Below, piece by piece: positions 3,996 to 11,836 of a stretch of DNA of 21,924 bases. The stretch comes from a virus (taxonomy: Duplodnaviria; Heunggongvirae; Uroviricota; Caudoviricetes): the IMG/VR virus record IMGVR_UViG_2609459845_000023, positions 1-21,924 of that record. The stretch is one strand, 5' to 3'. Position 1 is the stretch's first letter, and the number at the start of each line of letters is the position of its first letter. Under the pieces are notes generated by a model. The model saw only the letters and a program-made list of their open reading frames with translations, made no database searches and was not told the DNA's origin. The position numbers and the translations under genes are program-made.

Positions 3996-4063
3996 CTTAT
4001 ACATACTTCCTAGAGATAATTCTATGGAGGCATTAAATTAATACTGTCATTGGTAATATCATA

Positions 4064-6860: not shown

Positions 6861-7642
6861 GCAGCCACCTTCTGCTCAGAGGCTTTCTGTTTCAGGAATC
6901 CAAGAGCTTTCACTGCTTCGGCCTGTGTCAGTTCTGACGATGCGCGAATGTCGCGGCGAAATATCTGGGAACAGAGCGGCAATAAGTCGTCATCCCATGT
7001 TTTATCCAGGGCAATCAGCAGAGTGTTAATCTCCTGCATGGTTTCATCGTTAACCGGAGTGATGTCGCGTTCCGGCTGACGTTCTGCAGTGTATGCGGTA
7101 TTTTCGACAATGCGCTCGGCTTCATCCTTGTCATAGATACCAGCAAATCCGAAGGCCAGACGGGCACACTGAATCATGGCTTTATGACGCAACATCCGTT
7201 TGGGATGCGACTGCCACGGCCCCGTGATTTCTCTGCCTTCGCGGGTTTTGAATGGTTCGCGGCGGCATTCATCCATCCACTCGGTAACGCAGATCGGATG
7301 ATTACGGTCCTTGCGGTAAATCCGGCATGTGCAGGATTCATTGTCCTGCTCAAAGTCCATGCCATCAAACTGCTGGTTTTCATTGATGATACGGGACCAG
7401 CCATCAACGCCCACCACCGGAACGATGCCGTTCTGCTTATCAGGGAAGGCGTAAATTTCTTTCGTCCACGGATTAAGGCCGTACTGGTTGGCGACGATCA
7501 ACAATGCGATGAACTGCGCATCGCTGGCATCACCTTTAAATGCCGTCTGGCGAAGAGTGGTGATCAGTTCCTGTGGGTCGACAGAATCCATGCCGACACG
7601 TTCAGCCAGCTTCCCTGCCAGCGTTGCGAGTGCTGTACTCAT
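6857..7642 (-). CDS. bet: lambda Bet single-strand annealing protein (Red-beta)
   Basis: 261-aa [69 protein letters not shown]..., recognised as lambda Bet. Confidence 0.97.
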
Positions 7643-8162: not shown

Positions 8163-8295
8163 TTTTTGGGACTCCTGGCTGATTAAGTATGTCGATAAGG
8201 CGTTTCCATCCGTCACGTAATTTACGGGTGATTCGTTCAAGTAAAGATTCGGAAGGGCAGCCAGCAACAGGCCACCCTGCAATGGCATATTGCAT
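8131..8295 (-). CDS. cIII: lambda CIII (FtsH inhibitor, stabilises CII)
   Basis: hand-translated 54-aa [57 protein letters not shown]; SD TAAGGAG upstream; below the track length cutoff. Confidence 0.9.
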   Translation of the reverse strand: MQYAIAGWPVAGCPSESLLERITRKLRDGWKRLIDILNQPGVPKNGSNTYGYPD

Positions 8296-8367
8296 GGTGT
8301 GCTCCTTATTTATACATAACGAAAAACGCCTCGAGTGAAGCGTTATTGGTATGCGGTAACGCCGCGC

Positions 8368-8736
8368 TCAGGCGGCTTTGATAGTCATATCATCTGGATC
8401 AAATATTCCTGATGTATCGATATCGGTAATTCTTATTCCTTCGCTACCATCCATTGGAGGCCATCCTTCCTGACCATTTCCATCATTCCAGTCGAACTCA
8501 CACACAACACCATATGCATTTAAGTCGCTTGAAATTGCTATAAGCAGAGCATGTTGCGCCAGCATGATTAATACAGCATTTAATACAGAGCCGTGTTTAT
8601 TGAGTCGGTATTCAGAGTCTGACCAGAAATTATTAATCTGGTGAAGTTTTTCCTCTGTCATTACGTCATGGTCGATTTCAATTTCTATTGATGCTTTCCA
8701 GTCGTAATCAATGATGTATTTTTTGATGTTTGACAT
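8368..8736 (-). CDS. ea10: lambda Ea10 (early single-strand-binding-like protein)
   Basis: 122-aa ORF MSNIKKYIIDYDWKASIEIEIDHDVMTEEKLHQINNFWSDSEYRLNKHGS...; same length and same 73-nt spacing from cIII as in lambda. Confidence 0.85.
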   Translation of the reverse strand: MSNIKKYIIDYDWKASIEIEIDHDVMTEEKLHQINNFWSDSEYRLNKHGSVLNAVLIMLAQHALLIAISSDLNAYGVVCEFDWNDGNGQEGWPPMDGSEGIRITDIDTSGIFDPDDMTIKAA

Positions 8737-8754: not shown

Positions 8755-8782
8755 ATAAAAAATCGCCCTCACACTGGAGGGC
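8755..8782 (-). terminator. intrinsic terminator (tL2-region) upstream of ea10
   Basis: minus-strand hairpin GCCCTC-CAGTGT-GAGGGC followed by GATTTTTTAT. Confidence 0.45.
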
Positions 8783-8844
8783 AAAGAAGATTTCCAATAA
8801 TCAGAACAAGTCGACTCCTGTTTAGTTACGAGCGACATTGCTCC

Positions 8845-8872
8845 GTGTATTCACTCGTTGGAATGAATACAC
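8845..8872. repeat. 9-bp inverted repeat GTGTATTCA / TGAATACAC with 10-nt spacer
   Basis: read directly; lies between two terminator hairpins in the gap between the ral-slot gene and ea10. Confidence 0.5.
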
Positions 8873-8905
8873 AGTGCAGTGTTTATTCTGTTGTTTGCGT
8901 GAAAA

Positions 8906-8927
8906 TGAAACCCGCCTGAGCGGGTTA
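8906..8927 (-). terminator. intrinsic terminator overlapping the stop of the ral-slot gene
   Basis: minus-strand hairpin AACCCGC-TCAG-GCGGGTT followed by TCATTTTC. Confidence 0.5.
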
Positions 8928-9653
8928 TGACCACTTTTTGTTTGGATTTCGTTGGTGAGCGTGGTTTACAGGATTATTTGATATACCCCATAACTCTGAC
9001 TCGCTTATCTCTACACGAGAGAAAGACCTGCTTTCTTTCAGTTCTTTTATAAACCTAGAACCTACGATGACATCTATTGTCCCAGAAAGTTCTTGTAAAA
9101 GATCTTTGTTTTTTCTGAGGAAGAAAACATCTTCTTTATATTTAATTTTTACATAGAATTTATTCTGTATTTTTAATATATCAAAGCATGGCAGATATCT
9201 ATATCCCTCATGCTTTCGCCACTGCTTAACAATTATAACATCTCTTTCATTTACTGCATTAATCAGCCCAAGACCAAGTATAGGTATGAATATTCTATTG
9301 TCTGCCGAAAGCGTACAATTATTACCACCAGGCAAATATGTATAAATCATGTCGGAATTTTTATTCGCATCAACGAATGCACGTAAGAATCGTACATATT
9401 TTTGCCATCCGTTTATACCAAATTTACCATATAAGTATTCTTTATTTGTTAGAAGAAAACTATTTGTATCAGGAGCCTTATCTACAGACCTGTCGATAAG
9501 ATCTCCAACTACGTTTACAAAGTCAAAGACAGAGTTTAATAAGAACAATTGTCTTTCAGTCGGGCGAATTTCAATTATGTAGCCTGGATGAAGACGATAT
9601 TGCATCTGCTTACGAAGTATGCTGAACGCTTGGGTCCGGGCATCTGAAAGCAA
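8925..9653 (-). CDS. hypothetical AT-rich protein occupying the lambda ral/sieB slot (242 aa from TTG at 9653; 226 aa from first ATG at 9605)
   Basis: track ORF; body 8930..9540 is strongly AT-rich by eye while the 5' ~100 nt is GC-normal; no family recognised; does not match lambda Ral. Confidence 0.65.
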   Translation of the reverse strand: MLSDARTQAFSILRKQMQYRLHPGYIIEIRPTERQLFLLNSVFDFVNVVGDLIDRSVDKAPDTNSFLLTNKEYLYGKFGINGWQKYVRFLRAFVDANKNSDMIYTYLPGGNNCTLSADNRIFIPILGLGLINAVNERDVIIVKQWRKHEGYRYLPCFDILKIQNKFYVKIKYKEDVFFLRKNKDLLQELSGTIDVIVGSRFIKELKESRSFSRVEISESELWGISNNPVNHAHQRNPNKKWS

Positions 9654-9803
9654 CTTCCTGTCGCCATCGCCGTGAGCATTGTTTCTAATAAAACTGATAT
9701 AATTTGCTAATTTTTCAGCCTCTTTTTTGTGTTTTTTTTCGCTCTGATGCTGAGTCTATTGGTTTTGGTATGGACTTGTAATCAATTTTCTTCATTACGT
9801 ACC

Positions 9804-10127
9804 TCATGCCAATGGAATGGATTTCCCTTTAACCTTTTGTCTTCCTTGACAAGTTATACCGAACTCACTTGGCTTGCTATACCAAACTCGAAGATTCTTG
9901 CGCTCAATACGTTGCAGGTTGCTTTCAATCTGTTCGTGGTATTCAGCCAGCACCGTAAGGTCTATCGGATTCAGTGCGCTTTCTACTCGTGATTTCGGTT
10001 TGCGATTCAGCGAGAGAATAGGGCGGTTAACTGGTTTTGCGCTTACCCCAACCAACAGGGGATTTGCTGCTTTCCATTGAGCCTGTTTCTCTGCGCGACG
10101 TTCGCGGCGGCGTGTTTGTGCATCCAT
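9804..10127 (-). CDS. N: lambda N transcription antiterminator
   Basis: internal start of track ORF at MDAQTRRRERRAEKQAQWKAANPLLVGVSAKPVNRPILSLNRKPKSRVESALNPIDLTVLAEYH... (107 aa), recognised as lambda N. Confidence 0.95.
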   Translation of the reverse strand: MDAQTRRRERRAEKQAQWKAANPLLVGVSAKPVNRPILSLNRKPKSRVESALNPIDLTVLAEYHEQIESNLQRIERKNLRVWYSKPSEFGITCQGRQKVKGKSIPLA

Positions 10128-10285: not shown

Positions 10286-10317
10286 GCCCTTCTTCAGGGC
10301 TTAATTTTTAAGAGCAT
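10286..10317 (-). promoter_or_regulatory. nutL: nutL (boxB GCCCTGAAGAAGGGC; boxA-like TGCTCTTAA)
   Basis: minus-strand read GATGCTCTTAAAAATTAAGCCCTGAAGAAGGGCAGCA; boxB identical to lambda nutL, boxA differs at its first base from my recollection of lambda (CGCTCTTA). Confidence 0.85.

Positions 10318-10480: not shown

Positions 10481-11836
<1,356 letters not shown>

Follow-up and report, generated by a model that had tools for sequence, protein, structure and literature searches.

A frameshifted ortholog of phage 434 gp48, encoding the C-terminal peptide of Nun, lies between N and ea10 in a lambdoid early-left operon

The window analysed here, that is, the whole 21,924-nt stretch of IMG/VR record IMGVR_UViG_2609459845_000023 (Caudoviricetes), contains a lambdoid early-left operon with phage 434 immunity around the gene under study. 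The genes and sites of this region were bet, gam, kil, cIII, ea10, the open reading frame (ORF) in question, N, the nutL boxB, hex, 434 cI and 434 cro, and the closest overall matches of the window were phage Chlobot (98.1% over 64%) and phage 434 (97.4% over 57%). The ORF, which was confirmed to be located between N and ea10, can be read from a TTG or from ATG 9605 (Table 1) and is AT-rich, with a GC content of 0.350 vs 0.464 for the window, 0.481 for N and 0.388 for ea10. In lambda the same interval carries ral, orf28 and sieB, accessory genes concerned with restriction alleviation and superinfection exclusion. Comparison of the N-ea10 intervals showed lambda homology up to 8896 and again from 9814, with none in 8897-9813 of the window. 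The window has one gene in this interval, encoded on the pL strand; sieB, in the lambda record used, is encoded on the other strand. The protein, with its reading frame repaired as described below, was unrelated to Ral, orf28 and SieB (best BLASTP E-value 8.7), by which a diverged Ral or SieB was ruled out. An earlier reading of these letters alone, hereafter the sequence-only reading, had proposed horizontally acquired cargo in the place of ral and sieB. That proposal stood as far as an AT-rich module substituting at the accessory-gene slot between N and ea10 is concerned, and an exclusion-type role is plausible; the chimeric 5' end that was part of it did not stand.

Two terminator hairpins and an inverted repeat had also been placed downstream of the ORF, and all three were found to fold stably, far below shuffled controls. 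The hairpin closest to the ORF starts in its stop codon and belongs to the DNA that is homologous to sequence downstream of nun in HK022 and HK75. The long imperfect hairpin is common to lambda and HK022/HK75, and the third hairpin is annotated as a terminator in phages 434 and HK75. A search against Rfam gave no RNA family near the gene, and only the cIII thermoregulator was matched.

Table 1. Features of the gp48 locus in the window, ordered by position.
Feature	Coordinates	Strand	Details
ea10	8368-8736		
Stretch 95% DNA-identical to the 3' end of HK022/HK75 nun and downstream	8755..8970		
Intrinsic-terminator-like hairpin with T6 run, just upstream of ea10	8763..8784	-	-12.9 kcal/mol, z -3.6
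Long imperfect hairpin in the pL transcript, 22-nt arms, 82% complementary	8835..8882	-	-24.9 kcal/mol, z -5.4
Terminator-like hairpin AACCCGC-TCAG-GCGGGTT, then T-rich stretch	8909..8926	-	-12.4 kcal/mol, z -3.8
Full extent of the frameshifted gp48 ortholog	8925..9795	-	434 alignment, repaired translation, PHROG 12139
Residual open frame downstream of the frameshift	8925..9653	-	242 aa (TTG) / 226 aa (ATG 9605)
Codons for the C-terminal 14 residues, VNHAHQRNPNKKWS	8928..8969	-	equal to Nun residues 96-109, RNA-polymerase arrest peptide
Core domain, residues about 71-219	9138..9584	-	beta strand, helical bundle, beta-rich part; common to remote homologs
N-terminal extension, residues 1-70	9585..9795	-	two long helices; holds the A-run and the GC-richer patch
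A8 homopolymer (A7 in intact copies)	9732..9739	-	434 alignment; recurrent indel site
GAGG Shine-Dalgarno sequence of the gene	9802..9805	-	overlaps N stop TGA 9804-9806; 6 nt before ATG 9795
N	9804-10127		
nutL boxB	10286-10300		

Alignment with phage 434 showed that the ORF represents the 3' part of a 434 gp48 ortholog with a frameshift and is not the whole gene for which it had been taken; the intact frame in phage 434 and in E. coli prophages begins at an ATG that corresponds to window position 9795. In phage 434, gp48 (CPT_434_48) is annotated as a 'Nun C-terminal peptide-containing protein', with an 870-nt CDS that starts 8 nt past the N stop codon and encodes 289 aa, and the E. coli record of the protein is WP_001383906.1. 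The DNA of the window is 97.5% identical to that of phage 434 with one 1-nt gap, which is located in an A-run of eight residues (A8) in the window vs seven (A7) in 434 and causes a +1 frameshift. The frame from ATG 9795 has only 26 codons before a premature TGA (9715-9717); with one A taken out, the window encodes the 289-aa protein again. The intact frame of 289-290 codons is absent in the window, in which the frameshifted copy is present. Profile comparison with PHROG 12139, a family listed as function unknown, gave an E-value of 1.5e-205 for 434 gp48 over residues 1-289 and of 2e-169 for the window ORF, the latter over profile positions 48-289. Neither the frameshift nor the C-terminus identical to that of Nun had figured in the sequence-only reading.

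The Shine-Dalgarno sequence of the gene is embedded in the end of N, at a position equivalent to that of a ribosome-binding site annotated in 434. Because of this overlap, and with the start codon so close by, the gene is cotranscribed from pL, and its translation is probably coupled to that of N; a separate promoter for the gene was not found.

The gene was present in 93 of 5426 complete E. coli genomes, being full length in 83, where it was annotated as a 289-aa hypothetical protein, and the order N-gene-ea10 was observed in both E. coli loci examined. A 100% match to the A-run stretch of the window was found in 0 of the 83 complete E. coli genomes (the matches listed being identical at 75 of 76 positions). 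Among the IMG/VR loci with this run, A7 was present in 26 of 29, A8 in two (L039 and L040) and A6 in one (L038). The two A8 relatives are 99.8% identical to the window over 8.2-8.6 kb, from which they differ by 14-19 substitutions. Since these non-identical relatives both have A8, it appears to be inherited within a prophage lineage, and a one-off sequencing error was ruled out as its sole source; A8 may still be a platform-specific homopolymer error common to one sequencing project. The occurrence of both A8 and A6 variants indicated that the run is a recurrent site of indels, which may reflect selection against a harmful gene, neutral decay or, in part, sequencing error. With translation of the A8 allele stopping so early, the gene should be inactive in this prophage lineage, or yield no more than traces of product.

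The 14 residues with which the repaired protein ends, VNHAHQRNPNKKWS, also form the C-terminus of Nun in HK75 and HK022. We found three mosaic joints in this region, at 8896/8897, at 8970/8971 and at about 9813, and the second falls inside the last 15 codons of the gene, that is, in the tail-coding part. The homology to the 3' end of nun, which covers 8755-8970, makes this a recognisable recombination joint at the 3' end of the gene. An accident of mosaic recombination could alone explain the shared nun 3' DNA, so more distant relatives were compared. The residues V, N, H, A, H, R, K, K and W of the tail were invariant in homologs of 36-48% identity, and among six representatives (36-68% identity) 9 of 14 positions were invariant in the tail vs 50 of 275 elsewhere (Fisher p 3e-4), the tail being the most conserved 14-residue window of the protein. 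The codons of the tail differ synonymously between homologs, which argues that the peptide has been kept by selection and was not merely copied recently. On the evidence of these sequence comparisons, the Nun-tail peptide is under purifying selection.

The residues of Nun that make contacts in the arrested transcription complex are N97, H98, H100, R102, K106, K107 and W108, which contact RNA polymerase (RNAP), RNA and DNA, the cryo-EM contacts being with the beta' rudder, the RNA, the template strand and the downstream DNA (PMC5386594). Only Nun residues 87-109 are ordered in that complex, and they include all known arrest determinants (PMC5386594); Nun's C-terminal part has been described as sufficient for arrest (PMC6391919). 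The invariant N, H, H, R, K, K and W of the gp48 family correspond to exactly these seven contact residues, while Nun H93 and R94, which contact the upstream DNA, are not kept in the family. The tail was predicted to be disordered, with a pLDDT below 50 from residue 260, over the last 30 residues, in the AF2 model described below, as would be expected for a peptide threading into the polymerase. The Nun profile, phrog_5632, matched only the last 20 residues of the protein. No third architecture with a Nun tail was found using a 43-residue tail profile, which matched only three short Nun fragments.

To this shared peptide, gene context adds a shared position. The order pL-nutL-N-gene, in which the start codon of the gene abuts the N stop codon, was found in the window, in 434 and in locus L044, and the same abutting arrangement was observed in L005 as well as L044. 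In two other loci, L006 and L045, the gene is the first after cI, there is no N, and the leader contains a 68-nt stretch 95.6% identical to putL of HK75. Judged by this organisation, L006 and L045 are HK022-type phages in which the long gene is located exactly in the nun slot (pL-putL-gene). In L005 an N-like gene is followed by the long gene and then by an uncalled ORF of 102 aa. This ORF encodes a canonical Nun that has an arginine-rich motif, ends in the tail HKVVNHAHQRRPNKKWS and matches HK75 Nun over its length with 34% identity (E 2e-12). Such tandem Nun-tail genes suggest a simple origin for the mosaic joint of 434, namely recombination between two tail-coding segments.

The likeness to Nun of HK022 and HK75 (P18683; PHROG 5632) thus comprises the same last 14 residues, at the extreme C-terminus and flexible in both, the location of both genes in the pL operon, and a DNA identity of 95% between the window and the 3' end of nun together with its downstream terminators. 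Unlike Nun, which has an arginine-rich boxB-binding motif and is a disordered protein of about 110 aa, gp48 is without such a motif and, of its 289 aa, about 190 form a folded core. The gp48 gene follows N in 434, the window, L005 and L044, whereas nun replaces N.

In gp48, a helical extension at the N-terminus leads into a folded core, and the third part is a disordered tail at the C-terminus. The extension is rich in Lys and Glu, contains no RRR-type motif and is confined to the clade of phages that have the Nun tail. Pfam, NCBIfam and PADLOC gave no match to the window ORF, to 434 gp48 or to the remote homologs, nor did the PADLOC 2.0 defence-protein models match 434 gp48 or any of seven remote homologs, and a profile search against PDB sequences returned nothing at E<=10. 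For structure prediction, AF2 with a 4-sequence alignment gave a pLDDT of 46.8 and was unusable, so that a 25-sequence alignment was used instead; the resulting model had a pLDDT of 81 and a pTM of 0.71, with most blocks in residues 11-220 at 83-97. When this model was compared with the PDB by Foldseek, the best twelve matches were all Cas12 proteins (E 0.07-0.4), and the top matches in the viral library were mostly giant-virus 'transposases'. The order of strand, helical bundle and beta-rich part in the core presumably matches the WED-REC-WED order of TnpB. When the family profile was compared by hhalign with ISDra2 TnpB, either by itself or as one of three aligned TnpB sequences, 27 columns were recovered (P about 0.017, probability <3%), in which gp48 residues 71-97 were aligned with TnpB 6-32, that is, with the first strand and helix only. 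Sequence homology to TnpB is not claimed on this match.

The core is probably a TnpB/Cas12-like WED/REC module without a nuclease, as judged from the predicted structure. In the model, the fold of residues ~71-219 resembles that of TnpB and Cas12 (f, n, p, k), which gave the best structural matches both in the PDB and in the viral library, and the motif [FY]x[LI]xPxxxQxxxL at the first strand and helix is common to the core and TnpB/Cas12. Only about 70 residues follow the core, forming helices and the disordered tail, which leaves no room for a RuvC or zinc-finger domain, and no match to Pfam OrfB_IS605 or to a Zn-ribbon was found at E<=10. Unlike TnpB, gp48 is therefore without RuvC, without a zinc-finger/TNB domain and without a Pfam OrfB match, is located in a phage operon without IS200/IS605 context, and has a C-terminal peptide tail that is not found on TnpB proteins; the Rfam search gave no guide-RNA-like element. 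The nuclease-dead TnpB derivatives of enterobacterial prophages, TldR, are likewise prophage-encoded, and gp48 would share with them the lack of nuclease activity, but gp48 is far shorter.

The gp48 family is tiny, with five clusters in 5.8 billion proteins, and an exhaustive profile search gave 27 representatives, including a few more close relatives. The remote homologs have 210-330 aa, align to profile positions about 74-225 with E-values down to 4e-18, and keep the core together with a segment that precedes the tail, ELxxSxxYSRV(D/E)(F/I). They are without the Nun tail, most are without the N-terminal extension, and they end in another conserved peptide, ...LEG+xVxGGLPSLGK+R. A degenerate DNA pattern for the GGLPSLGK tail gave 6 loci, 5 of them real. 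These GGLPSLGK+R-tail proteins (P0011-P0038), from Betaproteobacteria and metagenomes, have the same build as gp48, with a core, a linker and a short conserved basic C-terminal peptide; they differ in the tail itself and in not being located in lambdoid pL operons. One clade of them (P0029, P0033, P0035 and P0036; 58-84% mutual identity) is located between brxC and pglX in BREX operons, the neighbours of which were identified by PADLOC as BrxA (E 3e-93), BrxB (E 4e-73), BrxC (E 0) and PglX (E 0). One further remote homolog adjoins ParB_N, NYN, RelA_SpoT and DISARM-like genes, and the others are standalone in Betaproteobacteria. These contexts are suggestive of an association with defence loci that is specific to one clade.

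From the tail, the position and the predicted fold taken together, we think it slightly better than an even chance that intact gp48 acts in transcription arrest or exclusion as Nun does, by means of a new targeting domain, and that the copy in the window has been inactivated. Intact gp48 would then work like HK022 Nun and be placed by its targeting domain at particular transcription elongation complexes: the core would localise the protein, and the flexible tail would reach into the cleft of the polymerase and stop it from translocating, with the outcome that transcription of a competitor phage or of selected templates would be blocked. A TnpB/Cas12-like WED-REC module without a nuclease would probably recognise a nucleic-acid feature, which could be a structure in the nascent RNA, or a DNA motif recognised as TnpB recognises its target-adjacent motif. 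Since phage 434 itself uses lambda-type N and nut, the target could not simply be a lambda-type nut/boxB, and since an unrestrained Nun-like arrest factor made from pL could harm its own phage, a different specificity must be assumed. Points that weigh against a Nun-type factor are the loss of the H93 and R94 contacts, the harm that it could do to 434 itself, the lack of a promoter that might serve the gene in lysogens, in which exclusion would be of use, the dependence of the TnpB likeness on a structure predicted from a 25-sequence alignment, with marginal support from the sequences, and the broken state of the gene in the window.

The loss of H93 and R94 also bears on a rather unlikely alternative, in which the conserved tail serves a purpose other than jamming RNAP, for example by binding another partner or nucleic acid, or as a tag for regulation or degradation. 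In that case gp48 would be a regulator that binds nucleic acid, or an anti-defence factor in the slot of ral, with its likeness to Nun limited to the peptide. Such a role would fit the remote homologs, which keep the core and the 'SRVDF' segment yet bear the GGLPSLGK+R tail, the placement of one remote clade between brxC and pglX in true BREX operons, and the anti-restriction gene ral of lambda at the same locus. It accounts poorly for the finding that the invariant residues of the tail are precisely those by which Nun contacts RNAP and nucleic acid, and for the presence of the gene in the nun slot behind putL in HK022-like phages and beside a canonical Nun in L005; moreover, the gene family had no match in any defence-protein model.

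In a broader and more doubtful proposal, the Nun peptide would be a portable RNA-polymerase-jamming warhead mounted on a nuclease-less, TnpB-derived domain for nucleic-acid recognition. Temperate phages would thereby have a transcription roadblock, directed by sequence or structure and conceivably with the help of RNA, for use against competitors or chosen host genes. The GGLPSLGK+R relatives, some of them in BREX operons, would form a wider, so far unrecognised class of defence-associated effectors that deliver their C-terminal peptide into a host machine.

The frameshift invites yet another explanation, which we regard as improbable, namely that the truncated ORF of 226-242 aa, comprising the core and the tail, is itself functional, or that the A-run is a slippage-based on/off switch. 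Many remote homologs begin right at the core without an extension, and a start at M64 would lie 7 residues before the first core strand. However, on reading the sequence no convincing, well-spaced Shine-Dalgarno sequence was found before TTG 9653 or ATG 9605, and the extension is kept in all six representatives of the Nun-tail clade (6/6). As to a switch, variants in both directions exist (+1 in the window, L039 and L040; -1 in L038), but A7 predominates in the IMG/VR loci as well as among the E. coli matches listed, so that the variants look like sporadic inactivations.

The chimera of the sequence-only reading, in which the 5' end of the ORF (9540-9653) is phage backbone fused by recombination to a foreign AT-rich body, is scarcely credible: the 5' 113 nt (9541-9653) do have a GC content of 0.442 vs 0.334 in the body, but the gene runs on for about 142 nt further upstream and remains AT-rich there (GC 0.355 over the next ~141 nt within the gene), homologs of 36-48% identity align collinearly and at full length across the GC-richer patch, and no homology to lambda, HK022 or another backbone begins at it. 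What had been read as a compositional junction is a local bump, which peaks at a GC of 0.50 at 9600-9689; 113-nt windows inside the gene have a mean GC of 0.348 (sd 0.060, max 0.504), so that the patch exceeds this mean by about 1.6 sd.

To our knowledge, no phage protein other than Nun has been studied that keeps out a rival through a physical lock on RNA polymerase. According to a paper of 2014, no function of Nun is known beyond its effect on lambda (PMC4124055). A literature search on the gp48 gene or family and on Nun-like proteins returned no relevant paper. The sequence itself is already known from public records, and the Nun peptide was noted by the annotators of phage 434. As far as can be told, the conservation of the tail in distant homologs, the presence of a gp48-type gene in the nun slot behind putL, its tandem arrangement with a short Nun, the predicted TnpB-like fold, and the relatives with another tail inside BREX operons are apparently undescribed.

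For the window itself, these results mean that the ORF is a pseudogene remnant and not a chimeric gene. For the family, a second architecture with the arrest peptide, conserved in divergent phages and located in the nun slot, suggests that this peptide is a re-targetable modular effector; with the intact gene in the classic phage 434 and the natural A6 and A8 knock-out alleles, the family is easy to put to the test. The relatives embedded in BREX operons suggest that some of these operons have a component that has escaped annotation. Should the TnpB-like fold hold, gp48 would represent another prophage domestication of the TnpB scaffold, in this case without any nuclease domain.

The long Nun-tail gene, known as gp48 in phage 434, was found in the slot of nun in some uncultured phages. 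A 68-nt stretch in two such loci, L006 and L045, matched the putL leader site of HK75/HK022 at 95.6% identity, and this stretch is part of the leader that separates cI from a 290-aa gene. This putL match makes these phages HK022-type, with RNA-based antitermination and no N, and the long gene replaces nun in them. In another phage, at locus L005, the long gene is located immediately upstream of an ORF encoding a canonical short Nun-like protein, with arginine-rich motif KGRRRALRMQQRR and tail HKVVNHAHQRRPNKKWS. The phage further encodes an N resembling that of lambda and has a boxB-like hairpin, so that N and two Nun-tail proteins are encoded in a single pL operon.

Features located in the window and at related loci
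Feature	Location	Strand	Remark
putL-like stretch	L006:2938-3005		68 nt
Short Nun-like ORF	L005:9037-9345	+	102 aa; absent from the gene caller's output
boxB-like hairpin	L005, about 7604-7618		GCGCTGAAAAAGCGC
A-run, A8	window 9732-9739
A-run, A8	L039, L040, about 4050-4057
A-run, A6	L038, about 4050-4057
Long imperfect hairpin	window 8835-8882	-	22-nt arms; -24.9 kcal/mol, z -5.4
Lambda cIII thermoregulator element, RF01804	window 8250-8308	-	full-length Rfam match, 88.5 bits
Open frame after cI	window 10481-10957	-	158 aa; exceeds annotated 434 hex CDS (405 nt)
Gene between brxC and pglX (example)	L010:8001-8867
ORF with Gly-rich, basic C-terminus	L049:6948-7622	+	…SGSYGSGKRR; Dechloromonas

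Codons 19-21 of the gp48-type gene, an A7 run, were a recurrent site of indels. These could be the sporadic inactivation of a costly gene, the run could be a switch prone to slippage, or the variants could in part be homopolymer sequencing errors.

Partial forms of the protein were also observed. Two predicted proteins from the representative search were chimeric: P0009 (96 aa), in which the first 23 residues of Bet are fused to the last 73 of gp48, and P0010 (107 aa), in which gp48 residues about 52-107 are joined to unrelated sequence. The former implies a bet-to-gp48 deletion in some prophage. The 44-45-aa ORFs P0041 (Raoultella) and P0042 (Serratia), both annotated as 'transcriptional regulator', contain nothing but Nun's C-terminal half, MDKVDKAL…VNHAHQRSPKKKWS, and may be truncated gene calls or stand-alone arrest peptides.

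Elsewhere in the window, the pL transcript carries the long hairpin between the gp48-type gene and ea10, and the hairpin's stretch is kept in lambda, HK022/HK75 and 434. The RF01804 match is what one would expect from a cIII leader of the lambda type. With regard to the frame following cI, the phage 434 record itself states that the published start codon of hex was incorrectly inferred.

Remote homologs of the predicted TnpB/Cas12-like core of gp48 were found in otherwise typical BREX operons (L008-L011, L052 and L055), as an unannotated 276-288-aa gene flanked by brxC and pglX, without a model in PADLOC and ending in GGLPSLGKGR. Downstream of it are a 376-aa gene, a 423-aa gene, an HSP70-like gene and a second MmeI-like methyltransferase gene. 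In Dechloromonas, the ORF with the Gly-rich, basic C-terminus is immediately downstream of a remote homolog, and its end hints that a G..GK+R C-terminal peptide is common to more than one protein family at remote-homolog loci.
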